Under the pieces are notes generated by a model. That model was given only the letters and a program-made list of their open reading frames with translations, was not told the origin of the DNA and did no database searches. A stretch of 55,471 bases of DNA, counting the filler, from Sphacelaria rigidula (Eukaryota): NCBI GenBank assembly GCA_964200075.2. It is 6 parts of 6 records of this genome, joined end to end, with 100 filler letters (N's around TTAATTAATTAA, not from the genome) between each part and the next. Parts side by side here need not be neighbours in the genome. Positions count along the whole stretch, not along the records: positions 9,266 to 18,427 come from CAXNAA020009150.1; 5 more parts are not named here. One strand, written 5' to 3'. A program made the position numbers and the translations under genes. Of the stretch, positions 1 through 51,573 are shown one piece after another. Positions within the stretch are counted from its first letter, which is position 1. The number at the start of each line of letters is the position of its first letter.

Positions 1-871
1 GTGGGCGGCTCTCAGTAGTGCCGGTTTAATAGTGCCAACGACCTATATAATGCCGGTAAAATCTCCGGGCACAGCCAGAGCTCGCAGCAGTGCCACCCGG
101 CAGTACTGACAGATAACCCTCAGTAGTGCCGGTTTGAACGGTTTTGTACCCTCAACAAAGCCGGTTCCGGACACGCTCACGCACGCCGTACCCCCCACAA
201 ACCAAGCACTAGTAGGGGTACAGCGGGGAGGAGTCGTGTCTAGTTTGCTGCATCGGTGTTTTTTTTTCTCGAGGTCCGTTTGTTTCTCTCTCTTATTGTC
301 TCGGTAGCCGGTAGGAAGTGAAAAGGGGTGTGGTTCACTCTTTCTTGCTCACTCCTTTTGGTGGGCGGTGTACTCTTTCGTGAGTTTTTTTCCACACCAG
401 ATGCCGCACTTTCATAGTTGCGGTGGGTGCAGATGTTTCCTTGTTTTTCTTGTCGGGAAGGTCTTTCGGCATGAGCAACTTTTGTGGACGTACTGCTGCT
501 GTTGTGCTAGTAGGGAAGGAAATGATCAACCTGTGAACAGGATCAATCAAGTTGAAGGTAAAAAACAAAAAAATATCGGGTCTAGTTCTGCTACCCCGAA
601 ACCTTACGTGACGTATCCTATGGAAACCCCTTGAAACAAAGGTCCTCGTCCGTTTTGTGCTTCCGTTGGTCCCACGGAGGGCAAGCGTAGCACTGTACGA
701 ACGGACGGTCGTCAGTAGTGCCAGAACCGGCACTACTGAGGTATTCAGAGCCCTCAATTGCACCTGTTTTGACACTTTTCAGAGTAGTGCCGGGCTCTCT
801 GAGTAGCGCCGGTGTCCATGGTGGGCACATACCGGCACTACTGAGAGCCCACCATGAAAAAACGTTCAGTG
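1..871. mobile_element. Non-autonomous CACTA/EnSpm-like (CACTG) DNA transposon, left terminus cut off by contig start
   Basis: The start (gtggg..ctctcagtagtgccggt) is the reverse complement of 831-853. The right end reads ...aacgttCAGTG at 867-871 (CACTG on the other strand). An AGTAGTGCCG-like subterminal motif recurs in both orientations near both ends (e.g. ~13, 121, 713, 727, 783, 831). Confidence 0.55.
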
Positions 872-2944
872 TGATATGGCGGACCGTTTCAGCATGATAT
901 CGGTGATCAGTCTCATGCGAGAGAGCAACAAAGGAGGATCAATCAACCTGCAAACAAGTGAGGATGAGCTTCCTGTATGATGATAGCCACGTATACCTAT
1001 GGCACGAAACCAGAAGGGAAAATAGTCATTCCAGTGTGTCAGATACGCATTTGATATAACATTGATTGAGGGCTATACACGCCTTTGGCTGGCGTCGCGA
1101 ACCACTCGTGTTTGTTGTTGGCGTGGGCATCTTCTTGGACTCTGTGTGGTCTTCTTCCTCACTTGGAGATATCTAAAACTTGTAATTTTCCCACCGGCGG
1201 GGGGTGGAGGGGTATCCGACATTCCAGGCTACGGGGGTACCTCCGGAATAACGAGTATCATGCGTAACAACTCTATCATACCGGTTCATCTGCCAGGGTC
1301 GAACTAAAAACGACCTCCTGAGCGACTGATGATGGTGGAAAACCAGTATCATGTGCAAATGACTGGGTCACATTCGCTCATTTGCCGGGTCGAAGTAGAC
1401 ACGGCGTTCCCAAACTAGTGTCGATGATTTTTGACGATCACCACATGAAAAATAACTAGGAAATATATTTTCATCTCTCAGGATCGACTAATGGACGATG
1501 TCCCCGAAGGACAGCCGGTGGTTCTCGGCGATTATCACGTGAACATGACCGGGTAAATTATTTTCCCCCGCGAGGCGCGAATCTCGGTTCATGTTCCTTT
1601 CATCTGCAAGACGCTCACTGAAAATGGTGGTTATACAGGAATGCTGATGGTGGACCAAGATCGAACTATGTGAAACGCAGGGAAATGGGCATGATCATAG
1701 ACGTGTTGAAGGGTCACGACAAATCCGAAATACTTTCAAAAAGAAAACAACAAACCAAGAACGACAACCACTACGTCCACCCAATCACGGCCACCACGTG
1801 ACCACCCGGCCACCACGTGATCACCCACACTGCGTCTCACCCACAGAAAGCACACACCGACAACGATAGAAGGCACTCCCTCCCAGCGGCCATCTCCCCC
1901 CGCCACTGTAACGCGCCCTATTAAGTATTTTGCTGCTCGAGTACCGCACGCAAGGGGACTACATCAATCCGCCCAAAGCGGTCGAACACTCGCATCAAGA
2001 GAAAGCAGCAAAAGTACCGTCCGCGGATCCAGATGTCAAATGCGCAGACCGTAGATGCCCCTCCCTTGCTGTGGTGCTCACTATTTCGTGCGATCCTAGT
2101 AATGGTTTCACTATGGTCGGCCCCGTTGCGTATCTCGTGAATGGCTCGTAGAGAGTAAGTCAAGACCTCTAGTGTCATGTTGGATAGCGTCCGGACGTGC
2201 AGAGTCAAAAGGAAATTGTCTTGTTCGTGGGGGTTAGGATTGACGCCGCTAACTTCGAGGCATTGAGACAAACCAGCGTACTTTCGCCTGCAGTCGGCGT
2301 CATGGTTCTTTTCGTATGGACCATCGGGTCCGATATACATCCCGCTCGAGCAACCCGTGTGGGAGTGGGGGCGACGCCGACCGTTACAGGTGTGCGTGTG
2401 GCCATCGTTGGCCGTGTCGTGGAATTTTATTCCGGAGCCTGCGACCTTGGAGTCCTGCCCGGCGCCGTCATACGGAAGAACGTTCGGGGCCAGCGCTATT
2501 TGTAGAGACTTGACCGAGGCAACATTTCGGCTAAAGCCGATACCACTGCGTACGGCGCGCTCTGGAACATGGCGAGGGACGAGCATGAACGACGGTCGAA
2601 CCCGCAGGCAACACTGACCGTTAGTGCGTTTCGCGCTTGTCGATGCATGATTGTGAAGCAGTGTAGTACATGGACTACCTCGTGTGGGCTACACCGGGAA
2701 ACTGGAGTACATTGGCTCGCACATTGGGAAATTTCAGCGTGCGCGTGTGGCAGCGCGCATGGGGAATCTGTGACTGCGGGACTTAATGCTACGAGCACGC
2801 ACGACGAACTGACTCACCGGCTCTCATCCGTTCTTCCGGGCCAGTAGAGTGCAGGCCTTCCACAACGAACCAGACCTTGGCCTGCGCGACGCACAGTAAA
2901 TGAAAAAGCTCACGGTTGAGGATATTGACGAATAGAAACTAAGT

Positions 2945-3490
2945 AAGTAGCTCGTGGTGGGAGAAAAAATTACTCGAGCAAACGAGCCATCGCTCATGGT
3001 GGAAAAAAGAAATTACTCGAGCAAACGAGTCAGTGCTCGTGGTTAAAAAAAAAATAGCTTGAGTAGTCACGTCACTACTCGTGGTGGAGAAAGAGATGAC
3101 TCCAGCCCACGAGTCACCGTTCGTGGTCAAAAAATGTTTATGACCTGAGGAAACTAGCCATTGCTCGTGGTTCAAAAAATGAATAGCTCGAGCACTCGTG
3201 TCATTGCTCGTGGAAACAAAAAAAAATCTCGAGTACACGAGGCAGTGCTCGTGATTCAAAAAACGAATAGCTCGAACACTCGAGTCATTGCTCGCGGGGG
3301 GGGAAGTCAAAATTTTCGAGTACACGGGTAAGTGCTCATGGTTAAAAAATGAACAGCTCGAGTCATTACTCGTGGGAACAAAAATAGAAGACTCTAGTAC
3401 ACGAGTCAGTGCGCGTGGTAAAAAAATCTAGTAGCTTGAGCAGTCGAGTCATTATTCGTGGTAAAGAAATAGATTACTCCAGCCCACGCG
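2945..3490 (-). repeat. Degenerate ~55-60 bp tandem array, related to the subterminal repeats of the element at 31643-33406
   Basis: Repeated ctcgagca..cgagtcattgctcgtgg-A-run units; reverse complement of the caacgagcaatgactcgagtgctcg units at 31700-32000 and 33040-33390. Confidence 0.75.
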
Positions 3491-3583
3491 TCTTTTTGGG
3501 AGAGAGATTAGGGCGTTCTCGGGGAAAACGGTCTCTACCATACTCAACGTCCGAGACCGATGAAACAAAACTGACTCACTTTC

Positions 3584-4004
3584 AACAGCGGATTCTCAAA
3601 AATGGGGTTGAAAAAAATGAGGTGTGACTCGAAGGCCGTGCTTTCTCTGACCTAAATTCATGACAAATGACTCTCATATTGACGGCCTCATCCCTCCCGA
3701 CGTCCCTAGAACTATTTCGGGGGGTTTCTAGTCTCCCGTTCTTCCAAAGGGTATGCGCGAAAGCACTCTTTTGCCTCGATTTCGGGGTGAAAAAAGGACT
3801 TCTTTTGGGCCGAAAATCGTGCTTTTGCTCATACCCTTTGGGTGAACGGAAGGCTAGAAATCCCCCGAAATAGTTTTAGGCACGTCGGGAGGGATGGGGT
3901 CGTCCATATGAAAGGCGTTTGTAGTGAATTTAGGTTAGGGAAAGCACGGCTTTTGAGTTAAACCTCATTTTTTGTTTCAACCCCATTTTCGAGAATCCAC
4001 TGTT
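3584..4004. mobile_element. Foldback/MITE with ~190 bp inverted arms (family copy 1)
   Basis: aacagcggattctcaaaaatggggttgaaa pairs with tttcaaccccattttcgagaatccactgtt, and pairing continues inward. The central ttttgcctcgat..gggg.gaaaaa.ggac core is shared with 49195-49572. Confidence 0.75.
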
Positions 4005-4124
4005 TTTCTTGCTACATGCCCTAGCGAGGTCCCACACAAAATTCGAACGCACGAGTACTAAACCTGGGTCGGTAAGTGGCCCGCAATATACTGTTCCAAA
4101 TTTCGATCGGCCCGGTTTCCAAAC

Positions 4125-4392
4125 GGCCCATCCGCAGCACAATTGTTTTAGTTGGACCTTAAAATTTGGTATGGACAACGAATAGGCCATGATACAAAAA
4201 ACGCATGCAAAGGCCCAAAGCTTTGTTTTTCTTTCATAGTTGAAAACAATAATCAGTTTTCAGGTATAGTAAAATGCCGTTAACTCATGGAGAAACAGCC
4301 TTGGGTCCACGCATACGTCTTTTAATCGTGGCCTATTCATTGTTCATATCAAACTTAAGGTCCAACTCTAAATATTGAGCTGCGAATGAGCC
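4125..4392. mobile_element. Palindromic MITE-like element
   Basis: tagttggaccttaaaatttggtatggacaacgaataggccatgat pairs with atcgtggcctattcattgttcatatcaaacttaaggtccaact. Confidence 0.6.
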
Positions 4393-5369
4393 TGCAAACT
4401 ACAAAATCCGCTTCTAGGCTGGCCCGACTCGTATCGAGCATCACATCCACCAATCTAGCATGAATCGACCATTCTTTTTTCTTTGAAGCTATTTCAATTG
4501 GGGCATAATATCTACAAAGCGAGCACTGCTTTCGGTGAGGTTACGAGTATGAAATGACGACTACACGAGTGTGATTAGAAGAACCCTACATTGTGCGGCA
4601 GCACGAGAACGTTCATTAGTCCAAAAATAGCAATGTCAACAGACGCCAGGCTTACCAAATGCTACCTTCCGTACTGAAAGAGATGGGGGCGCGTGGGTGG
4701 AGGGGCTCGGAGGGGTACGGCGTGATAAAACGTACAAATTTCATCACCCCACATCAGTATTCAGCTGAAAAGCTTCAACATCTACTACTTCCTGCATATT
4801 TTTTGTGGTACCAGACAAGAGGTTGCACATCTATGAGTACAGTAAAAAACGTTGGCTTCGATCCTGAAATATTTACTACACGGTCGTTTTTAGAGTTTGC
4901 GGTTCATGTGTGTCGTATCCACCGTCATCTCCTTCGACCGCCTAGAGCTATTCCACTTGGAAATTAGGCTAAGCCTAACATCGATACATCGCACGCATGT
5001 ACTCACACGGGAACATTCTGACACCGAAACACAAGGATCAGCGATATGGGAGTAAATTGCACTTTACCAGTCACGGGCTCACTTTTGGCATTCGCAAAAC
5101 TGGCATATGTTCTTGTCGCATCGGCAGCACTTGGCGTTGAGGTCACGGGTAAAACTCTTATAGCAACCGCTGCAAGCTCATTACCTGCACTTGCCGTTGC
5201 CAAGGCAAGAATTTCCTCCGCGTTCCCATCACGAACACTGCGGAGTTGCCCTAGCCGTGGCATATAGAGCAGTGAATATTTCAAGCTCCTGCTTCGCTGC
5301 GCCTGCCTTGACCACCTTTACCTGGGATGCGCCACGCAGCAGTAGCTCGACGACCTCCCGTCGGCGCTC

Positions 5370-5770
5370 GTCCAGATTAGTCTCCGCCACCCGCAAGCGG
5401 CGCCCGCCCAATCCCTTCTCGGCCGCCTCCCGCCGACGCTCGGTCGAGCGAGTCTATCCCACCTGCCAGCGGGGCCCGCCCAGACCAACATCGGCCGCCT
5501 CCCGCCGGCGCTCGACCGCATGAGTGCCTGCCAAGTGTCACGGGTGCCCGTCCTCCCGCCGGCGCTCGGCCACCCCCCGCGGACGCTCGGCCGAACGAGT
5601 CCGTCCCAACTGTCACCGGTGCCCGCCCACTTCCTTCTCGGCCACCTCCCGCCGGCGCTCGGCCGAGCGAGTCTCTCTCGTGTGCCAGCTGCGCCCACCC
5701 AAACCAACGTTGGCCGGCTCCCGCCGACACTCGACCGCCCCCCGCCGACACTCGACCGAACGAGTCGTTG
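5370..5770. repeat. GC-rich degenerate tandem repeat (~65-70 bp)
   Basis: Recurring cctcccgccggcgctcggccgagcgagtc-like units. Confidence 0.75.
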
Positions 5771-6000
5771 CTAATGATCACCGGCGCCTGCCCAACCACA
5801 CCTCGATCGCGTTCCGCCAGCCCTGGCCCAAATGAATCTACACCACCTGCCACCGGCGCCAGCCCAACGCCTATTCGAGCGTCTCCTGCAGTCGCTCGCC
5901 AAGGCGAGTCTCCACCGGCTTCCGCCGACGCACTTCTGCTCCCTTGTCGGGGTGACGTACCTCGACGAGGGGCCGGTCTTGCCGTCCCGACAGACCGCAC

Positions 6001-6369
6001 AACACGGGATTTCACAAATTGGGGATGGAGTTTTTTATTGAGGATGAGAAATCCCGATAATCAAAATTTTCGTATCCACACGCAATGTTCGAATATGGTT
6101 CCCTTTCTTCACTTACTGATAGCTATTGACAAGTACTACACGCCATACTAATATGGATTTCGATACCCGAAATGTTGGGGTTCTAGATGTAAAACCAATT
6201 TTGGGGGATTTCGGCGATCTGATCGGATCATCAAAGTTCCCCAAAATTGTTTTTCACCTAGGACCTCAACCTGTCGGTTATCAGGATCCAAATTTGTATG
6301 GCGTGTAGTAGTTGTCGATAGCTACACACAAACAAAAAAATCCATCCCCAATTTGTAAAATCCCGTGTT
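6001..6369. mobile_element. MITE with ~29 bp TIRs
   Basis: aacacgggatttcacaaattggggatgga pairs with tccatccccaatttgtaaaatcccgtgtt. The AT-rich interior sits in GC-rich flanks. TSD is ambiguous. Confidence 0.8.
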
Positions 6370-6687
6370 ATACACCAGGCACAGACAGTGACTGTGTTAG
6401 GATGACGGCTGTAGCTGGAGTCGTCGTGCGCGATGAAGTTGGTCGCGACTTTGCAGCTGCACATGCAAGTGCGGCCGCTAGCTGGCGCGTTGGCGGAAGG
6501 GTTCTTCTTTTCGAAGATGTCCATGACGGACTAATCGCGCCATGTGCAGCAGAAGCACGGTTGGTGCTGCTCATGGTTGCGCGCTAGGTCAGCGTGGAAC
6601 GCACTAACCGCACCTGCACCTGCTCTGTGCCAACCTTCCAGAGCTCCAGCTACTAGCCCGTGTAGCGCGGGCTGCGCACAGGTATCA

Positions 6688-6855
6688 AACGGCTGTATCT
6701 CCGTGAAGTTGCGTACACTATAACAGTCTATTGTCATATGATGCGGTACTCTACTGAACATATCCCGTATCATAACGGCTGTATCTTCGTGAAGCTACCT
6801 ACACTGCAATACATTCTGTTGTCACACGGTGCGATACTGTACTATACGTATCATA
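6688..6855 (+). repeat. Diverged ~86 bp tandem duplication
   Basis: aacggctgtatct(c/t)cgtgaag...cgtatcat occurs twice in succession. Confidence 0.65.
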
Positions 6856-7389
6856 CTCCACGGTGATTTCCGGTCGGTAATAATGTGCGATCGGTTTCAA
6901 AAACGAGTCTCTATAAACAGTATAATAACTACGACAAAACGGTAAAGGCTACTGAAGCAAAGTGGGTCCAGTTGATTTTTGTTTTCACTGGTTAAGGGCG
7001 TTTTAGTATGGAAACGACCATGTCTCACGAGAAAACCCAAACCTCTCCCCCCCAGAAAAATTGAGGGCCCCTTTTTTTGTTTTATTCAGCATACCCCTGT
7101 GGTTCTTTATCCTGAGTTTCAAATCACAGTTAAAAAAATTCAGCTGAAAAATTGAGATAAGGCCCAAGAGCAGTGTTCATTTCTCTTCAGAAACTGTCTT
7201 AAAGACGGGAAAGAATGGGAAAAGCTATTTTTGTTAGCTTCATTACGCACCATCGCTTCTCCACACTGAATTTCATAGCATAAGTCTCAAAATCTGAGAC
7301 GCGATATCCAGATTCGACTCAGTTCATCTAGCAATATGATGTCGGAGTGATAGGATTGCTACTTGATCGTGGCGGGTTGCTCACCACAC

Positions 7390-7769
7390 GCCCCGGTGCA
7401 CTAGTTGGTAACCTCGACACCTTCTGAAGGTTGGGTTGTGGGTTCGAATTTCGGAGCGATTTGGGATTTTTCCTCACACCGTGCCCAACAGTGGAGAGCG
7501 ATTATGTCGTGGGTACACAACATTCGACTTTTCGCTCGACGAGGGAAGGGGTCCGCTGAACCCCTTTCGCGATAAAAAATAGAGGCAAGCACCGCAGAAG
7601 GAAGGTGGAGTATTAAGAACAAATAAAACAGAAAAAACTCCTGTGTTCACCTTCCTCCTGTGTGACCCCGGCTGGTGCGCCCACAAAGATCGGAAGGTGT
7701 AGACTGGCGTCCAGAATAGATGGGACGACAACACACACGCACACACACGCACACACACACACACACACA
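7390..7769 (+). mobile_element. tRNA-derived SINE with (CA)n tail
   Basis: Head GCCCCGGTGCACTAGTTGGTAA...CCTTCTGA...TTGTGGGTTCGAAT has A-box-like and B-box (GGTTCGAAT, 7441) Pol III motifs. It ends in a (CA)n tract. Its 3' half recurs inverted at 9645-9820. Confidence 0.75.
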
Positions 7770-8024
7770 GTTCCTCTGCTCGTAATATATTGATTTCAGT
7801 ATGGAAGCTTATGTTCGCCATATCTCGAGATAGATAACGAATTAGGTGAAGGTGAGGGTATCTATCGTCTCCCCGTGCTCCAGGGAATATGTCCACACCA
7901 AAAATCGTCGTCATCCGCTGAATGCATCGATCGGGGTTGATATAGATTTTAGTGTGGACGCTATCTCCGTTAGGTACTCAGGCTGGTTCACGTTTATCAC
8001 CCAAAACACACTCATCGGCAAAAT

Positions 8025-8690
8025 CTCACGCCGTTTGAGGGAGTTAGACCTTGAAAATTTGCAAGAATGTTCCATGGGTAATTACGCAACTTTCGAAGGT
8101 CGAGGTTTTCGTACTTGTTGACTTTTTTCACCGTTTTTCGGGGATCCCAGTTTTATTGGGGAAACCTCGACCCAATCGGACCCCCGTAAAACGGTAACAA
8201 TAAATAAATAAATAAAACTCGTCCATCCGAAGTTGCGTAATGTCCCAGAGCACAGTTGTGCAAAATTTCAGGGTGTAACTCCTTAAAACGGCGTGAGGCT
8301 CTTGGCCTTTGTGCGATGAACTTTGCCGTACCGCGGAGAAACCGCGAAGTACTTGATTTTAGTACCAAAACGGCGTTTTCGGGCCTTCTTTGACGTGAAC
8401 ATGGAAATTCAAGCATCAGTTGATCGATTTTTGGGACGAAAATTGGTGGAGCCCATCTTTGGGTTATGCAAAGGCAGATAGTTGGCGAAAAAATGGAAAA
8501 CAATTATCGTAGTGCCGTTTTTCTGGGGTCCCAGAATGGAGCCTACTTCGAAAAACGACTTCGATCTCGTCGGACCCCGAAAAACGGTGAAAAACTCAAG
8601 TACAAGAAACATCGTCCGTAGAAAGTTGCATAATGATACAAACCATATTTATGCGAAGTTTTAGGATCGAACTCCTAATGACGGCGTGAA
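8025..8690. mobile_element. Foldback-type element: inverted arms 8025-8297 plus a third arm copy at ~8570-8690
   Basis: ctcacgccgtttgagggagtta pairs with taactccttaaaacggcgtgag. The cggacccc..aaaacggt...aagttgc.taatg...aactcct..acggcgtga arm is repeated downstream. Confidence 0.6.
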
Positions 8691-9165
8691 AGTTTGCGCG
8701 TTTGTGGAGGACGTGAGCTTGAAACGTGCGACTCCTAACTACTTGGTTTTAGTATGGAAACGTATTTTGGGGAGAATTTGACGTCAATGCAAGAAAAACT
8801 GTAAGAGGTTTTCGAGTTTCCCCACCAAACTTTGTACATGTGTTCCTTGGACTCTTCCGGGACGCCTCATTTCGCTATTTTTGTTTCAGAGCATTCTGTA
8901 CCGCCTTCCAGGGGTCTTCACGCTGGGACCCCCGGAAGCCGGTAGAGAACGGAGAAACCATGACATATTGCCAAGAATACATTTTTTTTTCATTTTGAGC
9001 ATCAATACCTACGGAACTGCCGAGTTTGAGGGCGATCTGAGCTTTTCTGCAACAGATATTGGGGACACCATCACGAGGCTCCCTGGGTCTTTCGTGTGTA
9101 TCATTAGTGGAAATTAGACGACGTCAACACCCGACATCACCGAAACATCACGGTTTCGGGTATAA

Positions 9166-9265
9166 NNNNNNNNNNNNNNNNNNNNNNNNNNNNNNNNNNN
9201 NNNNNNNNNTTAATTAATTAANNNNNNNNNNNNNNNNNNNNNNNNNNNNNNNNNNNNNNNNNNNN
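9166..9265. other. Artificial contig spacer
   Basis: N44 + TTAATTAATTAA (stops in all six frames) + N44. Confidence 0.98.
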
Positions 9266-9319
9266 ACCCTGCACCAAACGAACGCAAAGACCTCCCCCCC
9301 CCCCCCCCCCTCCCCCTCT

Positions 9320-10084
9320 CCAAAAAAATAGGTCCATTGTACTCACGTAAAAAAGCCCAGCCCCCAACTCTCACTTGTTGTGAATTCTCCCAGGCAGTGG
9401 CTATTGTTTGAGTCACGTTGAAGTTCTATGTGATCTCACCGTGAGGTCTTTGCCCCCGTCCCTGCTTGCTTGCGTTTTTCTCGCGGTGACCGTGATGGTG
9501 GTCAAGCTACATCATATTGTGGGGGGATGGAGAACCTCCACTCCGCGCGAAGGATATGATCGTACTACGTAGTGTTTAAATGGTGAGATACCCAAGAGGC
9601 AGGCAGTGTGTAAACCGTGACTGTCTCTGGAAGTGGCGATACTGGGTATGTGTGTGTTGTCGCCCCATCTATTCTGGGCGCCGGTCTACACCTTTCGGTA
9701 TATATGGGCGCACCAGCCGGGGTCACACAGGAGGAAGGCCAACACAGGAAATTTTTGTTTTTTTGTTATTTAAATTCTCCACCTCCCTTCTGCGGTGCTT
9801 GACTTTACTTTTTATTGCGACATACTGTACCAGAAAGTGAAGCAACTCATGGTAGGCTGTCATCCGTACGCGATATGACCAGTACGCTTCGGACCGAACA
9901 CTTTTATCAGGATGCAGCTCATCCTTCAAGGGACTCGCCGAGTACTTCACACTGTGCTTCGCGCTTGGTGATCGATTGCGAGCCTGATCCGGCGAAAAAA
10001 ACCGGCGTGCTCCGTCCAGGCTTTGTAGGGGTGCGAGGTCAATGGCCATATGACTACGGCATGCAATATCATGAGTACACCCCT
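9320..10084 (+). mobile_element. Non-autonomous retroelement (SINE-like) sharing its 3' end with the LINE; copy A, interrupted by a SINE fragment
   Basis: Aligns with copy B (10085-10610) over roughly 400 bp. Ends gctccgtc...ggtcaatggccatatgactacggcatgcaatatcatgagtacaCCCCC, similar to the LINE 3' terminus at 11810-11889. Preceded by a C-run at ~9291-9316; the 5' boundary is approximate. Confidence 0.6.
9645..9820 (-). mobile_element. 5'-truncated copy of the (CA)n-tailed SINE nested in copy A
   Basis: Reverse complement of ~7570-7745; possible atactg target duplication on both sides; absent from copy B and from the copy at 27790-27928. Confidence 0.75.
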
Positions 10085-10610
10085 TTCTGTCGAGGTTGGA
10101 GTCGGTCGGCAACGACGTCGTGAACCATGCCATTCACTGTGTACCTCAGGCAACTAGGCAATCCTTTTGTACTGTTGCGTTTGTGTTTTTTTTCTGCGGT
10201 AACCATGAATGGTGGTCGAGCGATTATCATATTGTGCGGGGTGGAGACACCTCAACTTCGAGCAAAGGGGATGATCGCAACACGTAGCGTTGAAATGGTG
10301 AGACACCCACGAGGCAATGTGCAATCCGTGACTGTCTCTGGAGGTGGCAGGACCAAAGGACGAAGCGACTCATTCGAGGCTGTCATCCAAACGTAAGATA
10401 ACAGTACGCCTCGGCCCGAGCGATCTTAGTATAATGCAGCTTGCCCTTCATACGACTCGCCGAGCACATGACGACGCTCCACGCTCGGTGATTGCGAGTC
10501 TGATCGGGCGAAAATCCGGCGCCCTCCGTCCCAGCTTTGCACGGATGCTAGGTCAATGGTCGTATCACTACGGCATACAGAACCATGAGTATACCCCCCT
10601 CCCCCCACCC
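10085..10610 (+). mobile_element. Non-autonomous retroelement copy B, oligo(C)-tailed
   Basis: Paralogous to copy A; ends ggtcaatggtcgtatcactacggcatacagaaccatgagtataCCCCCCtCCCCCC. Confidence 0.6.
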
Positions 10611-10620
10611 ACCCCCAACC

Positions 10621-11889
10621 CAAGAATCGTCTAGGATCAAGAGATGTATCCTGATGAACGTGATCGTACCAAAGCTGAAATATGCAGGAGAAGTATGGGA
10701 GGGGAACGCGAAGTTGATGGGGAGGTTGGAAACAGTACAGATGGCAGCAGCTAAGAAGATACTTGGATGCTCGAAAATGACGAATAATACACTTTTGAGA
10801 GCAGAGTTGGGGATGTACTCACTTGAAACAAACAGAGACATGAGGAGATTGCGATGGCAGTATAACGTAAAGAACATGCAGAGAAAGAGATTGCCAGCTA
10901 TAGTTGATCGGGCTGTATGGAAGAAAAGTACGAGAGGGCGTGCTATAAGGTGGGGCAGAGAAGTCGAGAAAGTGTGGAAAGAGATAGGCGGAATCCAAGA
11001 CGAAATACTGTCCATAGATGAAGACGCGGGGGACAAGACAAAAGTAAGAGACATGACAAAAATAAGGGGAGAGGGAGCGCTCAGACGCAAGGTAAACGAG
11101 GAAGAAGACCTGAAGACATACGGGTGGTCGAGAGAGGGGATGGGAATGAGTGCATATTTGCATGGTCCAATGGACGCTGCGAAAAATATGAAACTGCGAT
11201 TTCGGGTGGGGGACCTAGACCTGCCAGAAAGAAGAAAGAGATATACCAGTCGTCGAAAGGAGGTGGACGTAGATAGACAGAACTGCCTCTGTGACAAAGG
11301 AATAGAGAGCAGAAGTCATATAGTGACAGAATTTGAACTATGAAAGGAGGAACGGGACGTGCTAGAGGGAGGAATGCGGGACGTGAACGAAGGTGGCATG
11401 AAATTAGACAGTAGGGAGAAAACGATGGCTATACTAGGAGATAGATGGTGGCCAGAGACGGCGAAACATGACGGGGATAAGATGTGTAAAAGGTTTTTGT
11501 GTCATGTATGGAATAAACGTAATGAGCTATGGAAGAGACGTAATGAGCGCCCGAATGTTGGAGGTGTCTGTATCAGGAGTAGGACGGCGCTCCGCCGTGA
11601 AAGGGATGCGTGAACGAAGGTGGCATAAAATCATTTGATGCATCAGACAGTAGCAAAACGAATAATGGCTACACTCGGAAATAAATGGTGGCCAGAGACG
11701 GCGAAACAGGATGGGGATAAGACATGTGAGAAAGGTTTTCGTGTAGTATATGGAAGACACGTAATGGCCACCTAAATGTTGGAAATATCTCTATGAGGAG
11801 TAGGAACGGTGCTCTGTCTCGAAAGGGATGCGTGGTCAATGGTCAAACGACTAAGGCAAGCAACAAATGAGTACCCCCCCCCCCCCCCC
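10621..11889 (+). mobile_element. 5'-truncated LINE: ORF2 C-terminal region plus 3' end with oligo(C) tail
   Basis: Translation ILMNVIVPKLKYAGEVW...LETVQMAAAKKILG..TNNTLLRAELG..SLE..R..RRLRW matches the post-RT (thumb) region. QNCLCDKGIESRSHIVTE is a degenerate C-terminal zinc knuckle. The 3' ~250 bp is tandemly duplicated and ends atgagta-C-run. Confidence 0.85.
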
Positions 11890-12943
11890 AATATAACACG
11901 TACTATAGCGCCTGGACCCCGGCATGCAACCAGAAATGCACTCGTCGTATGGTGTATTGAGTGAATACAAGGGGAGATTCCTCGGTCCCGCTTCTACCTG
12001 TCTGTTTTCCTCTACCGCGGGATTTCTCGGTTTGCGCCACCGCAACCGCTGGTCTCGGACAAGGGACTTGAAGAGATGTCGTGCACGAACAAACTAAGAA
12101 ACTGAGTCGATCGACCCTGACCGCATCTGCTGCAGTAGCAAGCTAAGCAACGCCCCACTTGGACCGTATAGCTGCAAAGAGCAACAAAATATCACCTGTA
12201 AAGGGTTCGTTTGTACCTGCAAGTATGCATCAGACTGCAGGTCGTCCGCACCAACCGGTAGCTCGTACATCATGGGCGAGTATTGCCCTTCACCGCTACA
12301 TACCTCCTCTAAACCAGCCCAAGGCTATCTACAGCTCACAAGACACTGGAGCCCGATACAGTGAGCGCGATCCGCATGCGTTTGGCGGGAACACGAAACG
12401 GCACTACGATCAAAATCCCCACAACAACGCACAACGACCCACATACTCACGTGTTTACAACGATACATAGACTCTTGGACGAGTTGGTGGGGGGTTGCAA
12501 CAATACGTCAATGGGACAGTGCCAGGACGAGCCCGTTGCCGTCGAGCGCGAGGTCTCGAGGCGTTGTGGTTGTTCAATGAGATGGCCCGTATTATCCATT
12601 CGATATACTCACAATGTTCAATCAACACCTTCCACGATAGCAGCTTGGCAGAACTATCGCTTTTCCGTCGATGAACGCATTGCTGCACACTGAATTCGCT
12701 ACGGCTGCATTATGTCTCACCCGCATTGTGCCCTGCAGTGTTGTTGAAGAAAGTCACATCGCCAGTGATGGAGACGTCGCCGTCACCCACAAAAACAGCA
12801 CCTGTGGCGAGAACACGGACACACAGCAGTCAAATGCGCGTGGGCGACTCGTTGGTATACATCTGAAACACGTAACAGCTGCAATGCGTCTCGTGACGTG
12901 GGGTAGTCTACGACGACATTCCTTGCCTCTCGATTCTCCTACC

Positions 12944-13194
12944 GAGCCATCCCACGATAGGGAGGGGGGTATTTTGGGCCATTTTTTGCACGAAATTCCA
13001 GGTCAAATCGTCGTTAAAGGCAGCAACGGCTGCTCGGATAAGCTTGGTATAGATACGTGACGCTCATTCATGCCGATTAACATCGTTTCGAACCAAATAC
13101 AAGCGCACCGCGAGTGTGGTAGGTCGTCTGACACACTTATAAGCCTCTTTTTTCGTGCAACCGAATACCCCCCCCCCCTATCGTAGGATGACTC
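12944..13194. mobile_element. Complete MITE with GAG...CTC termini and 4-bp TSD (Sola2-like)
   Basis: TIRs gagccatcccacgatagggagggggtatt and aataccccccccccctatcgtaggatgactc; TACC on both sides (12940-12943, 13195-13198); second copy at 45913. Confidence 0.8.
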
Positions 13195-14009
13195 TACCTG
13201 CCCACCCATTCGGTCTTGGCGGCAGATGGCAGCGCAATACCGAGCAAAGCACAAAGGAATGCAAATGTTCCCGCGTTGAACACGCGATGGATATTTCGAA
13301 GCTCTGGAAAAGATTGGATCGAAGACAACGGGGTCGCCTCATCCACCGATGGCACTCTGATGTCTCTCTCTTTTGAGCTTCACTCAATCGGGGAGCACTA
13401 AGGCGTTTCCATCATAGTGCCGTTTGCGGTGTGGTGCACAGTAGCTAAGGTGCCGTGACTATATTTAGCAGGGTCCGCTGTCTTTGCGTGAAACGAGTAC
13501 CGAGATATGCGGCGTTCTGCTGTCCCCTTAATTCCCTATCGCGACGATGGATCGTCGGGCCGTCCTTAATGCGTCATGCTCTTTTAGGAGTACTGGGGGT
13601 CACGATTTATAGTAGGCCGATGGTGCATTGAGTTAGTCGTGTGGTTCAGAACTGGCATATTCCTAATGACTGGCGTTGTGCGTATTCGATAACGGGGTAG
13701 CATTGACTAGAACCCCGTCCCTCGTCGGAGGAACGGATGGAGCGCTGTCAAACCTTCTCAACAGGGACTATTGCGGCAGGACAACGGAATCACATGCACC
13801 AAGTCACCATCCCACATCTCTACGTCACTGATGCCTTTAAATATGGGATAGAAACGTTCAGGCGACGGAAGATCGCGTCCGAAAGATAAGTCATGATTCA
13901 TAGCACTCAACAACACCTCTGTGGAATGGGTTGGCTGCGGTCCAGGCATATAAAAATCCCCGCTGTTCTTCGTGCGGTTTCCCACAAGACGCTGCAATTA
14001 AGGCGTTTG

Positions 14010-14200
14010 TTTCAAGTCGCGACCTCGTGCACTCTGACGTTTGGACTACACGAAATATGCTATCATTGGAATCAACCCACAAACCTTCGATGCTTATAAC
14101 TTCGATATCATGAGATTAGTGGATGAGAATTGTCAAAGTGGCATCTTCCACAACCGTACTGTTGAAGATATTCAGGGCCTCTTTCCCAGATTGTCCATGC
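14010..14200 (+). repeat. Dispersed repeat, also at 18043-18255
   Basis: tttcaagtcgcg...tggactacacg..atg(c)tatcattggaatcaa...cttcgatgct...agattgtc(c/t)atgcc is shared between the two sites. Confidence 0.75.
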
Positions 14201-15949
14201 CAAGTGGCGACGGCGCTGTAAAACAAGCCACAAGAACGCAGACTTGAGTGTACAGACTGTCACCATACATATACCAGAGACCGCCACCAGACAGAACGGA
14301 TTTCCAAACCAACAGATGCACTAGACACGCAAAAACCCGAAGAGACAAAATTGATTCTCCGCAGTAGAACACAAACCCGGTATTCTCACGAAATAACGAA
14401 GCTGCCCAATTATTTCATGTGCATTGTCAAAACACAGCCCAGAGACATGAGACAACGCAGCTAACTGTTTATTCTTCCCTCCCCCCTTCAATACTATCAA
14501 TATGTTGTGAACATTTTTGAGCATGCTTTCCTCATGTTCTCTCTCATGTTTTGTGTGTATATATATATATATCAACCTTTCCATATGTAACTATTCGCGG
14601 TCACGTATTTGTGTTTTTTTCCCCTTTTGTTTCATATTTTGTATCTATATTTTCATATGCTTTGATATTTTTCCTTTTTCCTTTCCCTTCTTCTCCCTTT
14701 TCAATTGTTGTTTTCTTCCTTTATTCTCGTCACTTTCTTTTTCCTGTTTTCCTCTATTACTCTTTGTGAGATGCGCCACAAACGATACCGATTCCCCGCG
14801 GGTGGTGGAATCTCGTCAGACGTTTTCCTCGAACTCCCGACATCAGATGCACAAGCCTCCGATAAAGGGAAGGGGTGGAAAATGCATGACATGAATGTCA
14901 AGACCTACAGCGCCTATGAAACAAACACCTTACCGATGACCGACCACATGACCTACGAGAAGGAGCACTAAGCACGACGTAGTATCTTGGGATCTTGAAC
15001 GATAGAAGCAGACACAAAGTGCGGGGGAACTGTTGGCCAAGATTTCGGCAGCGAGGACCTACTCGGGAGCATTAGTAGAGTAGCGACCCATGGCGAACCG
15101 TACGGGACTTCCCGATGTGTGGGTAAGACCTTGTGTTATGCAACCTGACACGTAAAAATTATCTCCCTGCAGGAAAGTAAACAGTGCAGCAGTGGGACAA
15201 GATAGAAGACACGATCGTGAGACGCCTGGATGGTTTACCATGCAGATCGCCTGGCACAAACATAGGGTACTTGTGTCAAAGGTGTTGAACTTGGCTTCAG
15301 GCTACGAGCCCGTTCTCGAGACATTGTTCAGAGTCGATGAGTCAGCAAAAGAATCGAAAGACACCAGACCCCCATCAAGTACCATGATTGGGATACCCCA
15401 GTATATTGGCTACATCCCATCTCAATACTCAAAACAAACAAGCTGGAGGTGCTCTCGAAAGAGATCGAGAGAGACGTGAGGAAGAGTGGGTGGAGAAGTA
15501 AATAGTGGACAGGTGAAGGACTCGTAGTTCTGGCATTTGGAGTACGTAAGGATATCACGAGAATAGAGTTTAAGCGGGAATACGATGAGGTGGGACTGTA
15601 TTGTTTCTTCAACAATAGCAAAAAACTAGAAAGGGGGGAAGTACACTTCCAAGTCAAGCAAAAAACAGAGTGTGAGCAAGAAATGGAAAAGGATAGAGAC
15701 ACATAAGGTGTCGGCAATGGTTAGAAGGGTATCACGGAGGACATGCATACGAACAGTAAACCTAAGACGTTGTCCGAGGGTAAATGGAGGAAAGGAAAAG
15801 AAGACACAAGTAAACGCCCGGACGGGGAACGGGAGGGTAAAGAGCGGCCCGAAGCAAAGAGAAAGATTCCAAACCGGAAATGGTAAGAGAGATCACGCAA
15901 CGAAGAATGAAAGTGAAAGGGGCGGAGGCAAAACAACATAAAAAAGGAG

Positions 15950-17342
15950 GATGGACAATGATTCAGAAAGAGAGTTGGGAAGGGGATCGTGAACCGTGTG
16001 TGGATTCGTCACGGAAGAGCTCAAAATAATGGAGATAGCCGACCCACGAAGTAACCGCGACTTGGATAAAAATGGACATCCAAGAGTCATCGGAGAAAAA
16101 TGGGGCGGAAATAGGATAGAAAGTTGGAGAGTATGCATGAATAAAGGGAAAGCGGAAGGGACAGAACTCCAAGAACAGGGGAGCGGGGGGAGCAGGGTTC
16201 TCGGTCACGGAGTACCTGTGTGACGTCATATAATTGGTGAAGGTGCAAACGTCGACAAGAGATATTTGAATAAGAGTACCGGGGGAGCAGGGAACGAAAG
16301 CCTTTGTCGTAGGAACATTAATATGCCCCCAGAATCGAAGAGTACGGCATTTGATATACAGGGGAGGCTCGCAGAGATACCAGCAGATGCGCAGAAGTAT
16401 AAAAGGCAAGGAAAAGTACACTTAGAGGGAGATTTTGGTTCAAGGGTCGGAGAAGCAATTCAACCCGATGATTGGGCAATATTGCGGAAGAAGAATGCGA
16501 ACAGGATAGAGATGTTGAAGTTCCTTGGAAAGAACGGGATGGCGCGGAAAGATAGAGCACAAAAGTCAACGTCGCAATAGACATGAACGAGGCAACGCAC
16601 TGAGAAAAAGACAGGAAGCTCCAGTCTTGACTGTATAGTGGTAGAATATGGAAATAGTAAGATAATGGAAGGACATGCCTGTACAGAGGACGTGGGAACC
16701 ACGGATCAGTGCTGAATATGAACAGGTATATAAATAGGCGGGGTAGAAAGTTGTACAAATGACGGATAGATAGACCATAAATTGACGAAAAACGGCAAGA
16801 GTTTCAGGAAGAGATTATCAAATATGCGGTGAAATTGCGGTGAAATTTTCCGAATTGTTGCAAAGCGTGAATACAGCTAGTACCAAACTGGAAAGGGATC
16901 AGGCAGGCGCGGAAATTAAACAAGAATGAGAGCAATTGATGAAGACCACAGGAAGTAAGGTCACACGGAAGAAAATGATCATATGCAACAAAGCAGTGAA
17001 ATAGTGGAGTGAAGAAGCAGAAGAGGCTACAGGATTAAGGAGAGAGGTCCACGCAAGATGTATATCGAGTAAAGTTACGGGAGGATGGCAGGAGTATGAT
17101 GAAGCTCGAAAGGAGGTAGAAAATATCGTACTGCGTGAAAAAAGGGAATACGGGAAAATGCAGTGAATAAAATATATGACGATTTACACGGCGGGATGAA
17201 GCAAATGTGGGTAGAAAAAAAGAGGGTAGTGGGAAATTAGGCAGAAAAAATAGACAAGGGGGTAGCCACACTAACGATGAAGAACGGTAAAATGGCTAGT
17301 GGTTTGAAAGGGAAGCGAGGATCACTACCGGAGCACTATAGA
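15950..17342 (+). pseudogene. Decayed LINE ORF2 5' part: APE endonuclease and linker
   Basis: Fragments such as GVGFLVTEYL-like, NINMPPES, GKVHLEGDFGSRVG (GDFN motif), NANRIEMLKFL, SSLDCIVV and GTTDQC (SDH-like), with many stops and frameshifts. Purine-rich sense strand. ORF1 remnants may extend upstream to ~14800. Confidence 0.75.
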
Positions 17343-18043
17343 TCTCAGGTCCCCTCTGATTCCAGGTTCCCACAACGTTTGTCACAGCCCATTTCTCCAT
17401 ACTCTGTCACAGGCCCCCTGTATGTCTAGGAAGAAGCAGTACGCTATTAGCCCGGCGTCGTTTCTACCTTAAATATCCTACCTGATGTGCACACAACGTC
17501 TACGCAACTACGGTTTGGGCTAAATTTTGCTTGATCCTCGCTAATATTTTCTTTTTTCTCTAGCATCGTTGCCACTCTATCGTTCAGAACCTTACATAAT
17601 GTTTTTCCTATGGTGCTCAGTAGCGGTATTCCTCGGAAGAAACCTGAGTCAGCCTTGTCTCCGTCCTTGAGAAAGTTATCTCCCACTCCTTACCTCCGCC
17701 TTGTAAACAGGTGTACTGCTACTTTTTCTCTCCACCTCTCGGGTGCGTACTCATTTTCCCATATCCAGCATAACCATCATGCCAACCATTCCCTCACATC
17801 ATTGCCGTCATGGTAAGCATTTCCTGTTTCCCCGTGCTTGGAAAAACCAATCAATCCTCCGTTACACCCCTGTTGCCTTTCTGTTCTTGAGTTCAGCTAT
17901 ACACTCCTTCACTTCCTCTCTTGTGAGCCCTCTCCGTCAATCCTCCGTTTTGACGCCTGTACATTTGCATTTGCCCACGTTGATTCTCTTTCTCGAATTC
18001 CGTGTCGAAGCGCTACTTCATTGCTGGTGTCCCTGGTTTACGT
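17343..18043 (-). pseudogene. LINE reverse transcriptase N-terminal region, inverted relative to the upstream APE part
   Basis: FLKDGDKADSGFFRGIPLLSTIGKTLCKVLNDRV...ISEDQAKFSPNRSCVD and YCFFLDIQGACDRVWRNGL are recognisable non-LTR RT N-terminal motifs. Confidence 0.85.
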
Positions 18044-18265
18044 TTCAAGTCGCGGCATCCTGCACTCCAAATTTTGGACTACACGGAAGATGCCATCATT
18101 GGAATCAATATTCAAAACTTCGATGCTAACCGCTTCGATATATGCGATTGGTGGAAGACAAATGGCGAAGGGGTAATTTCTACATCTGTACTATCGAAAA
18201 GACCCATTTGTACTAGTGAATACACGCACGATTTCATTTTCAGATTGTCTATGCCCCCCCCCCCC

Positions 18266-18427
18266 GTAAGGGGATACGGTATGTTGAAGGGTTTGCGGAA
18301 TGTATGAATTGACGTAACGAGGACCAAAATGTTGGAGTTGGGTCCATTAGGAGTAGGAACGGTGCTCCGTCTCGAAAGGGGTGCATGATCAATGGTCAAA
18401 CGACTAAGGCAAGCAACAAATGAGGAC
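18266..18427 (+). mobile_element. Short 3' fragment of the oligo(C)-associated LINE
   Basis: Matches 11710-11875. Begins immediately after C12 (18254-18265), and the contig ends where the C tail is expected. Confidence 0.8.
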
Positions 18428-18527
18428 NNNNNNNNNNNNNNNNNNNNNNNNNNNNNNNNNNNNNNNNNNNNTTAATTAATTAANNNNNNNNNNNNNNNNN
18501 NNNNNNNNNNNNNNNNNNNNNNNNNNN
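18428..18527. other. Artificial contig spacer
   Basis: N44-TTAATTAATTAA-N44. Confidence 0.98.
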
Positions 18528-19008
18528 CACTTTTGTGGCCTTGGACATTGTCCCCATCACCTTGCCACACAGCCCTTTGTGGTCGGGGTGGGCCGGCAGG
18601 AAATGCAGTTATTCTGGAAAGGACTCAACGAGTAGAGCAAGTCATTCGAAGGCGTCAACAGTCATTCGAAGGCGTCAACATCCGCCTAGCCCTCTCGTCA
18701 CTGCTAAATCGACGGCAAAGGGCAAAACAGGCAGTTCTGAACAATATTTTCGAACAGCTCCCATTTTAACCGGTCTCAGACGCAGCCATGTCAACCTGTT
18801 TTAGACTCGAACGAATGCGGTCGAATCGAGTTGGTCCTTACGAGGTCGTATCTAATACGTCCACGTGATCAATGTTCGTAGATGGATTGAAGTCCATCCT
18901 ATACTAAGTCACGCACTACGGGCAGGGTCCAATACACAACAGCTCAGCATTTTCGGTCGAGGGCGGCGGAATGATCAAAGGAGCACCTGACTGAAACATT
19001 GCAGACAA

Positions 19009-19124
19009 CCATACGACCTACCACCCTATAAGAAAAACTATGCAAACCCTACCAACATTGTGCCTTCCATACGACCTACCACCCTATAAGAAAAACTATG
19101 TAAACCCTACCAACATTGTGCCTT
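19009..19124 (+). repeat. Near-perfect 58 bp tandem duplication
   Basis: ccatacgacctaccaccctataagaaaaactatg(c/t)aaaccctaccaacattgtgcctt occurs twice. Confidence 0.9.
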
Positions 19125-20436
19125 ATAAGTGACAGTCGAACCTTGCACCATAAATCACGAATTGAGCACAGGGATGCATACTCTGCAGTATCAGGGAACC
19201 GACACCACCCTCTTGGCATGAAGCGTTCCTGTTCTGTCGGCGATAACTCGGGCGTCTGATACTGTGGTGGGTTCGACCGACGGAGTTGCGTGTTATTGTG
19301 GTGGGCGGCCGTATTGCGACACGCTCGTGCAAAACTGTACTCATTTCAAATCTTTTCACGTCCTGTATGAAGAGGAAGGAGTCATAGAGATTCGCCTCGA
19401 CTTCAGAGAAACTGTGATGGGAGTCGTCGAAAACCCATTCCGAAGAATGCGTCGTGGGCGCTTTCCGTTGTGACATTCGGAAAGAGGGTTAGGCGGACGC
19501 CGACGCCTTGTTATGACTTTGCACTTCCGGATGGCCGCAGTTGTATTTTTGGCCCAACAAGCGTTTGCGAAAAAAAAAAAATCGGTGTACAAAAAGAAAA
19601 AAAACAGAGCGAAAATTGCCACTTCCTTCGCGAGCATACAAGCAACTTCGTAGCTGCTGCCCACCGTGCGAACTATAACTTCTTCACCAACTTCTCCACC
19701 GTCCCTGCATTAACAGGATAGGGGGAGGAAGCGTTCTGCCACCGAGACAGCAGATGGCACAGGAGAAACGATGAGGATGAGGGAGTTTGCGACGCGTCAT
19801 CAGATGGCGTGGAGGCCGATACTCCCACCGACGAAGACCCCCCAGCAAGATGAAGGAGAGAAGCTGTCGTTTGCGGACGCGTGCCTGATGCCGGTTTCCG
19901 TTGCCCACAGGATTAGAGTGGCAGAACACGTTTGGGATAAGATTACGCATAACTATTCTCTCGCTCAGGTCATAAATATCTACGAGTATGGAGTGAGACT
20001 GACGAGATTGATCGATCCCACCGAACGTCCCGACGGGAAGCAGCCCGGGTTGCTCACCACGGAGCCGCCAAGCACAGAAACCACCCAGAGTAAGGTACAA
20101 GACGACAGTCCGACTCACCAGCAGCACATTGCAGACGTATCGCTCGCACCATTGGTGCTTATATACCCTTTGAATTCAACTGAAGGTGTCGGAATGAGTG
20201 CGAACATGAGTGATGCGTGACGCTGGAAATGCCCGTGTTGAGCGGCAGGTCAAACTCACGGGGAGGATCGTGGTGTCGGATCGGATCGATCGTGATTGTT
20301 TTTCTCGTTTGGATTCGAATACCCCTTCGCCTAAAATGATCCCTTGGCGCACAGACAGTCCATGGAAATATCATCAACGGCGATGCACCCCTGCCCGATG
20401 AAAGTTCGAGTTCGGAGGGCGGAGGGTAGCCGAAGC

Positions 20437-20475
<39 letters not shown>

Positions 20476-21244: not shown

Positions 21245-21485
21245 GGAGGGGGGGAGGGGGGTACTCCTTTGCTGCTTGCCCCAGTCGCTTGACCGTTGAC
21301 CACGCACCCCTTCGAGCCGGAACACCGTTCGTACTACAATCAGAGACGAGACACGCACAACGTTTGGGCGCTCATGACGTTTGCTCCGTACACAACACAA
21401 ACAAATTGAGATACGCTATCGCCGCCCTGTTTCCCCGTCCATGGCCACCATCTCACTCGAAATATAGCCACATGACTGCTCATCA
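21245..21485 (-). mobile_element. Diverged 3' fragment of the oligo(C)-tailed LINE
   Basis: Reverse complement reads ...cgaaggggtgcgtggtcaacggtcaagcgactggggcaagcagcaaaggagtaCCCCCCtCCCCCCC. Confidence 0.75.
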
Positions 21486-27580: not shown

Positions 27581-27689
27581 TTGATGATGAGGTCGTCTCA
27601 TAACTCTGCCTCAGGCTTCAAACAGCGGATCATCTATGTTGAGGATGGAGATTTTCATTGAGGATGAGACCCCGGAGGATTAAAATCTT

Positions 27690-36400: not shown

Positions 36401-36401
<1 letters not shown>

Positions 36402-51531: not shown

Positions 51532-51573
51532 TTTCGTTCTTTCTTTTCGTTCGTTCGTTCGTTCGTTCATTCC

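Follow-up and report, generated by a model that had tools for sequence, protein, structure and literature searches.

Microsatellites serve as targets for several long interspersed nuclear elements (LINEs), those given in PMC3812793 being (ACAY)n for Waldo, (AC)n for Mino, (TC)n for Kibi, (TTC)n for Koshi, and (TAA)n for Dong, and LINE pairs of the stringent type can end in 3′ repeats other than poly(A), as described for eel UnaL2/UnaSINE1 with (TGTAA)n and for the I factor with (TAA)n (PMC3747384). In the brown alga Ectocarpus, the mobilome published in 2025 includes the RTE-X LINEs RTEX-1 and RTEX-2_Ec32 together with RTEX-N1_Ec32, a non-autonomous element of ~600 bp that has its 3′ end in common with these LINEs and ranks first in abundance among the families there (PMC12477816). 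Here, we analyzed a stretch of 55,471 nucleotides from Sphacelaria rigidula (assembly GCA_964200075.2), referred to below as the window, which carries repeats that a first-pass annotation had described as one LINE family ending in oligo(C) and appearing to target C homopolymers. We found that this "family" is in fact two: an autonomous LINE and a non-autonomous, LINE-dependent partner, designated family A, the two matching only over their last ~57 nt. Both end in C runs or C-rich tracts, and a C run frequently lies ahead of truncated copies.

The window was joined from six pieces of ~9.16 kb (1-9165, 9266-18427, 18528-27689, 27790-36950, 37051-46211, and 46312-55471) through linkers of the form N44-TTAATTAATTAA-N44 (9166-9265, 18428-18527, 27690-27789, 36951-37050, and 46212-46311). 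Adjacent pieces are not contiguous in the genome, and repeat copies touching piece ends are cut artificially; this concerns LINE or partner copies at 18427, 27796 (in the piece starting at 27790), 46211, and 46312.

The autonomous member is a LINE with an apurinic/apyrimidinic endonuclease (APE) and a reverse transcriptase (RT) in a single open reading frame (ORF) of ~1360 aa, which consists of an N-terminal region, the APE domain, the RT domain, and a C-terminal CCHC region. Translation of 10621-11343 yielded the C-terminal part of this protein, and its full-length relatives, P0004 and P0006, are 1328-1360 aa long. Pfam searches of P0004 detected PF03372 (Exo_endo_phos) at aa 170-392 (E 3.4e-12) and PF00078 (RVT_1) at aa 740-989 (E 9.8e-31), as well as PF14529 (Exo_endo_phos_2) at aa 279-414 (E 3.3e-07), which was above the cut-off in P0004 only; for P0006, the values were E 8e-15 for Exo_endo_phos and E 2e-32 for RVT_1. 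Among PDB sequences, the RT region best matched LINE-1 ORF2p (E 7e-21) and R2 (E 9e-20), and ~370 aa including a CCHC motif follow beyond the RT domain. In protein searches, the only named homologues came from Ectocarpus sp.; the remaining clusters were unnamed and bore no clade names.

Two features mark the element as an APE-type LINE. The APE-like endonuclease lies N-terminal to the RT in one ORF, and variable 5′ truncation is combined with a constant 3′ end: copies begin at aa 1, 108 (at a contig end), 1024, ~1269, ~1294, or ~1325, and TGAGTA(CG) is the end point of every copy that extends to the 3′ end. The ORF ends in ...NGQMTKASNK, followed directly by its stop codon (...AAA TGA GTA(CG) + C(n)). 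This stop codon TGA lies within the ATGAGTA-like motif that had been noted at the 3′ ends, which belongs to the end of the ORF and is not a motif of the untranslated region (UTR). In the intact copy, at locus L004 of another assembly, one 1360-aa ORF at 1068-5144 is followed by TGA, GTACG, and C13, and the LINE 3′ UTR is only 3-5 nt long before the C run. Full-length copies have a 5′ UTR of no less than 1 kb, which in L004 (1-290) opens with ~90-nt tandem repeats; the contigs of L004 and of locus L002 (1-120) both stop short of the 5′ junction.

Five LINE fragments were identified in the window by tblastn with P0004. The copy at 10621-11889 (+ strand), delimited by tblastn, translation, and self-BLAST, is 5′-truncated and degenerate; homology to aa 1024-1360 starts at ~10630, and the stop codon TGA (11868-11870) is followed by GTA and a C16 tail (11874-11889, +). 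This copy also carries an internal duplication of 227 nt, 11382-11612 resembling 11609-11834 in self-BLAST. A long degenerate copy occupies 14760-17983 (+), as determined by tblastn and by BLAST to the 5′ UTRs of L002 and L004; its 5′ UTR (~14760-15475) is followed by aa 1-626 at 15476-17342 (+) and then, at 17346-17983 (-), by an inverted segment that encodes aa 646-843; the remainder of the ORF is missing. The inverted segment may reflect an inversion/deletion or a twin-priming-like event. The third fragment, at 18266-18427 (+), is a 5′-truncated LINE (aa ~1325-1360) that lies 4 nt behind C12 (18254-18265) and breaks off at ...AAATGAGGAC, where piece 2 ends. The fourth, at 21226-21485 (-), is 5′-truncated, with a body at ~21262-21485 and a decayed C-rich tail at 21226-21261, and the fifth, at 46312-46388 (+), is a terminal module, truncated where piece 6 starts, that ends in ...CAATGAGTACG + C6 T C3 T C2.

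The partner, family A, is ~430-600 nt long. Its copies at ~9468-10084, ~10180-10620, 27796-27922 (-), and 46152-46211 resemble each other in self-BLAST and are not LINE fragments. Copy 1 (9468-10084, +, with an approximate 5′ limit) is interrupted at 9650-9820 by an unrelated repeat and ends in ...CATGAGTA-CACCCC, a short decayed tail. Its segments 9475-9637 and 9839-10083 match copy 2 at 10189-10348 and 10362-10597, and contig joints leading from 9642 to 10362..10368 represent the form of family A without the interruption. Copy 2 (10180-10620, +, again with an approximate 5′ limit) carries a 35-nt C-rich tail at 10586-10620. In the third case (27796-27939, -), a fragment at 27796-27922 is cut by the start of piece 4 and is preceded, in the sense of the element, by C10 (27930-27939) and 7 nt; in the fourth (46138-46211, +), the C14 of a foldback element, element X (46138-46151), is followed by a 5′-truncated copy (46152-46211) cut by the end of piece 5. 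By BLAST, positions 2693-2732 of locus L006 also resemble family A (window 46204-46165).

Likeness between family A and the LINE was limited in BLAST to the last ~57 nt, with 73-82% identity in three copies (two in the window and one in L006). From alignment, BLAST, and contig joints at 11810/11816, we defined a 64-nt terminal module (TGCTCYGTCTCG...AACAAATGAGTA; 11810-11873, +) that encodes the last ~20 LINE codons and is common to the LINE and family A, the shared part starting at GCTCCGTC (window 11811). The partner thus carries the 3′ terminal sequence of the LINE, as in a stringent-type pair of a LINE and a short interspersed nuclear element (SINE). Neither a tRNA nor an Rfam family at gathering score was detected in the whole window, and family A thus lacks the RNA polymerase III head, derived from tRNA, 7SL, 5S, or snRNA, of a strict SINE; we therefore refer to it as a LINE-dependent non-autonomous element, as PMC12477816 does for RTEX-N1.

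We next compared the 3′ ends of all copies. Thirteen ends were visible, five in the window and eight in loci of other assemblies, and none ended in poly(A) or in any other repeat. Pure tracts of C8-C16 were present at six of them (window 11874, L001, L002, L003, L004, and L006), and interrupted C-rich tracts with longest runs of 4-7 at the other seven (10079, 10586, 21261, 46373, the L006 partner, L010, and L011), which belong to older copies. All ends in the window read ...GAGTA(C/T)(G/A) followed by C or C-rich sequence. For family A, these are 10071-10084 (+; CATGAGTACACCCC, with only C4) and 10586-10620 (+; ...GAGTATA + C7 T C6 A C3 A C5 AA C3), and for the LINE, 11868-11889 (+; TGA GTA + C16), 21226-21264 (-; GGAGTAC + C6 T C7 T CC A T CCC..., decayed), and 46367-46388 (+; TGAGTACG + C6 T C3 T C2). 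Elsewhere, the ends are TGAGTACG-C8 in L001, TGAGTACG-C10 in L002, TGACTACG-C11 in L003, TGAGTACG-C13 in L004, and TGAGTA-C10TC9 in L006, all five continuing into unrelated sequence past the tail; the L006 partner copy ends in GAGTACA-C5, and L010 and L011 are decayed modules followed by C-rich remnants.

These additional copies came from a metagenome scan (3 loci) and from genome-contig scans (2 + 2 stretches, one of them a repeat), a viral-contig scan contributing 0, while three genome bins with algal contigs held two further decayed modules and several internal fragments without ends. The ORFs of loci from other assemblies share 75-98% identity with P0004; conservation of the tail therefore extends over diverged subfamilies, and we regard the tail as almost certainly a property of the family. 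Every position that the first-pass annotation had given for 3′ ends and 5′ sides was found as described, and its statement that the 3′ ends are oligo(C) and not poly(A) was borne out at all 13 ends and by hundreds of contigs in four sequencing runs. We note that bins G003 (which holds L006, L009-L011, L014, and L017-L022) and G002, both labelled bacterial, include several contigs with brown-alga LINE fragments, which points to host contamination.

For this wider comparison, piece 2 was matched at a likeness of at least 90% to contigs of four public runs from three studies (X1, X3, X4, and X6), and the best 15 of 2248 joints and the best 24 of 5385 loose ends were considered. Past the LINE tail at 11889, 528 (X1), 461 (X3), 73 (X4), and 40 (X6) contigs continued. 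Their consensus starts with ~13-16 further C, after which agreement falls to 0.41-0.54, a pattern that points to many copies with tails of ~30 C and unique flanks. Behind the partner end at 10083, 36 contigs of X6 start with C10, and at the loose end before 10631, other LINE copies extend upstream in 118 (X1), 95 (X3), and 46 (X4) contigs. In the runs compared, no other repeat comes close to the LINE/partner family in abundance: 166,402 contigs matched in X1, and the summed depth, which is not a copy number, reached 2.3-4.7 million in LINE bins versus 75-105 in the unique bins at 12020-12937.

At the 5′ side, nine junctions could be read, and at four of them a C run or C-rich tail precedes the copy by 0-10 nt, always C and not G in the sense of the element. 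The LINE junction at 10621 (~10621-10631) follows the 35-nt C-rich tail of the upstream copy with ~10 nt of filler between; that at 18266 follows C12 at a distance of 4 nt. For family A, C10 lies 7 nt before the junction at 27928 (-) and C14 lies 0-1 nt before the junction at 46152. Three of these four C runs are not tails of module-bearing elements, namely the C12 at 18254 and the C10 at 27930, both of which have unrelated sequence before them, and the C14 at 46138. The first-pass annotation had placed the starts of 5′-truncated copies right after C runs at these same four positions, which holds if "right after" is taken as a spacing of 0-10 nt; the lack of a 5′ C run that it reported for the copy ending near 21485 was also seen here.

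The C14 at 46138 belongs to element X, a foldback element resembling a miniature inverted-repeat transposable element. An intact copy is found at 12944-13194 (no strand assigned) with the structure GAGCCATCCCACGATA-G run-TATT...~190 nt...AATA-C11-TATCGTAGGATGACTC, and a second copy at 45913-46151; the terminal inverted repeats (TIRs) thus contain homopolymers (GAGTCATCCWACGATA-G12-TATT ... AATA-C11-TATCGTAGGATGACTC). Comparison of the two copies gave a paralogous empty/filled pair, in which the intact element reads AATA-C11-TATCGTAGGATGACTC (13168-13194) and the other reads AATA-C14 and then continues into the partner element (46138-46152). In L002, the C10 tail of the LINE runs straight into TTATCATCGTAGGATGG, an X-like TIR motif. 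Element X is itself present in high copy, with a summed depth of 779,742 (X1) in the bin 12938-13243 versus ~75-105 in neighbouring unique bins. As separate observations on this element, its intact copy may be flanked by a 4-bp TACC duplication, G/C runs inside TIRs are unusual for a DNA-type element, its motif also occurs at L002 5008-5024 and in L010, and an X1 contig joint from 13189 to 11693 has telomere-like letters (TAGGCTTAGGGTTAGGT) where the TIR meets a LINE fragment.

Contig joints gave a similar picture, as 10 of the best 15 of 2248 consist of a C run or tail followed by a 5′-truncated copy. Among these best 15, five connect the C17 run at 9313-9316 to 11810/11816, three connect the partner tail (10082/10083) to 11810 or 10295, and two return from the LINE tail (11886/11891) to 11810. 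Twelve contigs of X6 have C-rich ...CCTCCCCCCCCCCCCTCCACCC just before 11812. Extremely short copies start most commonly at 11810/11816 in these joints, which yields a 64-nt unit plus tail. Such units were often seen directly behind another C run ("goes back 77/82").

The window is also rich in long C/G homopolymers. A homopolymer count over the 55 kb gave 14 C/G runs of at least 10 and only 2 A/T runs of that length. By our arithmetic, fewer than one such run is expected in a random 55-kb sequence of the same composition, and the wealth of C runs is therefore more than chance.

Taken together, these data support targeting of C tracts as the first-pass annotation had proposed it, with real but incomplete evidence that falls short of proof: four of nine junctions, the paralogous site in element X, the tail-TIR joint in L002, and 10 of the best 15 of 2248 joints speak for it, and we consider an integration bias toward C tracts to be probably real. 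Several results weigh against it. No C run is found at five of the nine junctions (~21485, L006:349, the L006 partner at ~2870, ~9468, and ~10180), among which are a clean 5′-truncated copy in L006 and both apparently full-length partner copies. A target-site duplication was not readable at any copy, including 10621-11889, 21226-21485, and L006 349-703; where C runs lie on both flanks, a duplication cannot be delimited. Nor was an orthologous or allelic empty site detected, as none of the best 15 of 2248 joints leaves out precisely one insertion. For no full-length LINE was the 5′ junction captured, the contigs of L002 and L004 ending first and the copy at 14760 having no recognisable boundary. 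Eight of the long C/G runs (9294, 20438, 20502, 20584, 20605, 28774, 43474, and 55399) have no LINE module alongside, which indicates that C runs are also made or kept by other routes; the flanks of these eight match no other C-run flank except inside a local repeat at 20.4-20.6 kb, and none of the eight was assignable to a repeat family.

Further points against the overall explanation given below concern the arrays and the module itself. Head-to-tail arrays could also arise by template jumping of the RT or by unequal crossing-over. The sharp start at 11810 departs from random 5′ truncation and is unexplained; it could mark the smallest mobile unit, a site where the RT stops, or a tandem array. 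For five tails, folding of the terminal module gave minimum free energy z values of 0.08-0.58 against shuffles, which is not significant, and no compensatory pair was seen by eye in its alignment. A conserved 3′ stem-loop in the module, considered as a candidate, was dropped on these two grounds.

As the best explanation overall, we lean toward an APE-type LINE and its partner that carry an oligo(C) tail and integrate by target-primed reverse transcription with a bias to C/G runs. The last 64 nt of the LINE would act as a recognition module, which family A would have copied, being mobilised in trans in the manner of stringent LINE/SINE pairs. We infer that the RNA bears the C run, which the donor copy would encode and slippage would probably extend. 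During target-primed reverse transcription, this oligo(C) tail would anneal to a dG run exposed at the nick and prime synthesis there, so that integration would be biased to existing C/G homopolymers, the endonuclease or the priming step selecting the C tracts. Landing sites would include the tails that older copies carry as well as the C runs within the TIRs of element X, and the outcome would be head-to-tail arrays and a genome seeded with C runs. For the annealing-primed step taken by itself, we see the case as evenly balanced. If true, priming on dG runs would explain the 14 C/G runs of at least 10 in 55 kb. More tentatively, and with less confidence than in any of these parts, this might be the first LINE/partner system in which the same C/G homopolymer is both tail and preferred target, each insertion becoming the next landing pad; such a system would build arrays of the 64-nt unit and would largely account for the long C/G runs of the genome.

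The strongest alternative, which we still regard as unlikely, is that the C tail is real and the element has no target preference, a short C template being copied reiteratively by slippage and the arrays stemming from template jumping of the RT, which would pass from one RNA's 5′ end onto another's C tail, or from unequal crossing-over at the tails. Slippage on 3′ repeats has been described for UnaL2 (PMC3747384) and would suit tail lengths that span C8 to about C29 or more; the five junctions without a C run are likewise as expected, and the 227-nt internal tandem duplication in the window copy demonstrates that such rearrangements happen. In addition, many joints of a tail with the 64-nt unit (from 11810) look like one repeated discrete product and not like independent random truncations. 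However, three of the four 5′ C runs (the C14 of element X, the C12 at 18254, and the C10 at 27930) are not module-bearing tails, and at such runs, template jumping between element RNAs is not explanatory. The continuity of the L002 LINE tail with an X-type TIR also speaks against this alternative and agrees with the biased integration that we favour.

Strict site specificity appears less probable still, and we think it improbable. Here, the RNA would end in GUACG, the endonuclease would cut within C/G homopolymers, and the C runs on both sides would be target DNA, in the manner of the microsatellite-specific LINEs. The C-rich nature of all 13 3′ ends, the halt of the element's own sequence at a fixed GTA(CG), and the C runs on both sides of four copies could all be accounted for in this way, but most 5′ junctions should then show a C run, and only four of nine do. 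The flanks past the tail are moreover unrelated (agreement of 0.41-0.54), and the similar tails of young copies, 8-13 C, fit a transmitted tail better than captured target DNA. Finally, although pure runs of great length that adjoin or lie near gaps (C37 and C17 by the N10 gap at 20438-20528, and C55 at 55399) could be partly artefactual, the probability that the C runs in general are sequencing or assembly artefacts (two-colour poly-G calls) or chance homopolymers is negligible, because the tails sit at one fixed position after TGAGTA(CG) with unique sequence on both sides, recur in five contigs of other assemblies and in contigs of four runs from three studies, and are mutated in old copies, as real DNA would be.

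Other features of the window were noted in passing. The region 20380-20650 consists of repeated units (GATGAAAGTTCGAGT..TAGCCGAA) with C37, C17, G13, and C18 runs around an N10 assembly gap. At the end of the window, a C55 run (55399-55453) is followed by GGCGGGCGCGG and more C, with no LINE module beside it, and may in part result from assembly. An open frame of 1350 aa at 37546-41598 (-) encodes 27 EsV-1-7 cysteine-rich repeats (PF19114, 1204 bits), a repeat protein of brown-alga/phaeovirus type. Another repeat family, which ends in an (AC)n/(CA)n microsatellite, is present at 7567-7770 (+) and 9650-9820 (-), the latter copy sitting within copy 1 of the partner element; beside other copies of this repeat, a G8/C8 run was seen in X6 contigs at the loose end before 9649.

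If the tail does prime on dG runs, this family would offer a natural test of base-pairing between RNA tail and target versus endonuclease specificity in LINE integration. Assemblies break at long C/G homopolymers, which can also adopt G-quadruplex or i-motif structures, and given the abundance of the family in the runs, its site choice would shape the architecture of brown-alga genomes.

With respect to classification, it is a feature of RTE-like elements that the 3′ UTR is very short and closes with a short repeat in place of poly(A), and L004 shows it, with a single APE+RT ORF and a 5-nt 3′ UTR followed by C13. The ~370 aa with a CCHC motif after the RT are not typical of classical RTE. RTE-X is the most likely clade, an assignment that follows from the LINEs given for Ectocarpus in PMC12477816, which are only CRE, RTE, RTE-X, and "Unknown." The family is probably the RTE-X LINE/RTEX-N1 pair catalogued in Ectocarpus in 2025, the two being likened by description only. 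Both have a brown-alga host, an APE+RT LINE, and the rank of most abundant repeat class; both include a short partner that has the 3′ end alone in common with its LINE and a 5′ part of unknown origin; and both show frequent 5′ truncation with very short derivatives. The pair differs in that the main text of PMC12477816 describes neither a C tail nor insertion into C tracts, although the tail may be recorded in Fig. 1C ("terminal motifs") and Supplementary Material 3 of that paper. No C-tailed LINE was found in the literature searched, with the same proviso for the figures and supplements of that paper, and the literature on mononucleotide simple sequence repeats of brown algae yielded nothing relevant.

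The microsatellite-specific LINEs resemble the present one in being APE-type, in having a tail repeat that equals the suspected target repeat, and, for some copies, in carrying the repeat on both sides, whereas a C homopolymer is not among the targets given in PMC3812793. With four of nine 5′ junctions behind a C run, the element described here has at most a preference and not the strict specificity of those LINEs. Clades of the Waldo/Mino/Kibi/Koshi/Dong type are Tx1, R1, and R4, as opposed to the probable RTE-X here. Zepp of Chlorella forms clusters as new copies insert into older copies' tails, much as proposed for our LINE, but its tails are poly(A). In UnaL2/UnaSINE1, as in our pair, the partner carries the 3′ module of the LINE and a short repeat takes the place of poly(A) as the tail, its variable length fitting slippage; here, by contrast, the unit repeated is just one C, the coding region and not the 3′ UTR contains the module, and no conserved stem-loop was seen. 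The LINE tails treated in the parts of PMC3812793 and PMC3747384 that bear on this question are poly(A) or A-rich or consist of mixed short repeats, and a homopolymer-C tail appears in neither. The element described here is thus of a known kind and belongs to a family that has probably been catalogued, and its oligo(C) tail, together with the apparent preference for C tracts, distinguishes it as a variant undescribed in the literature searched.

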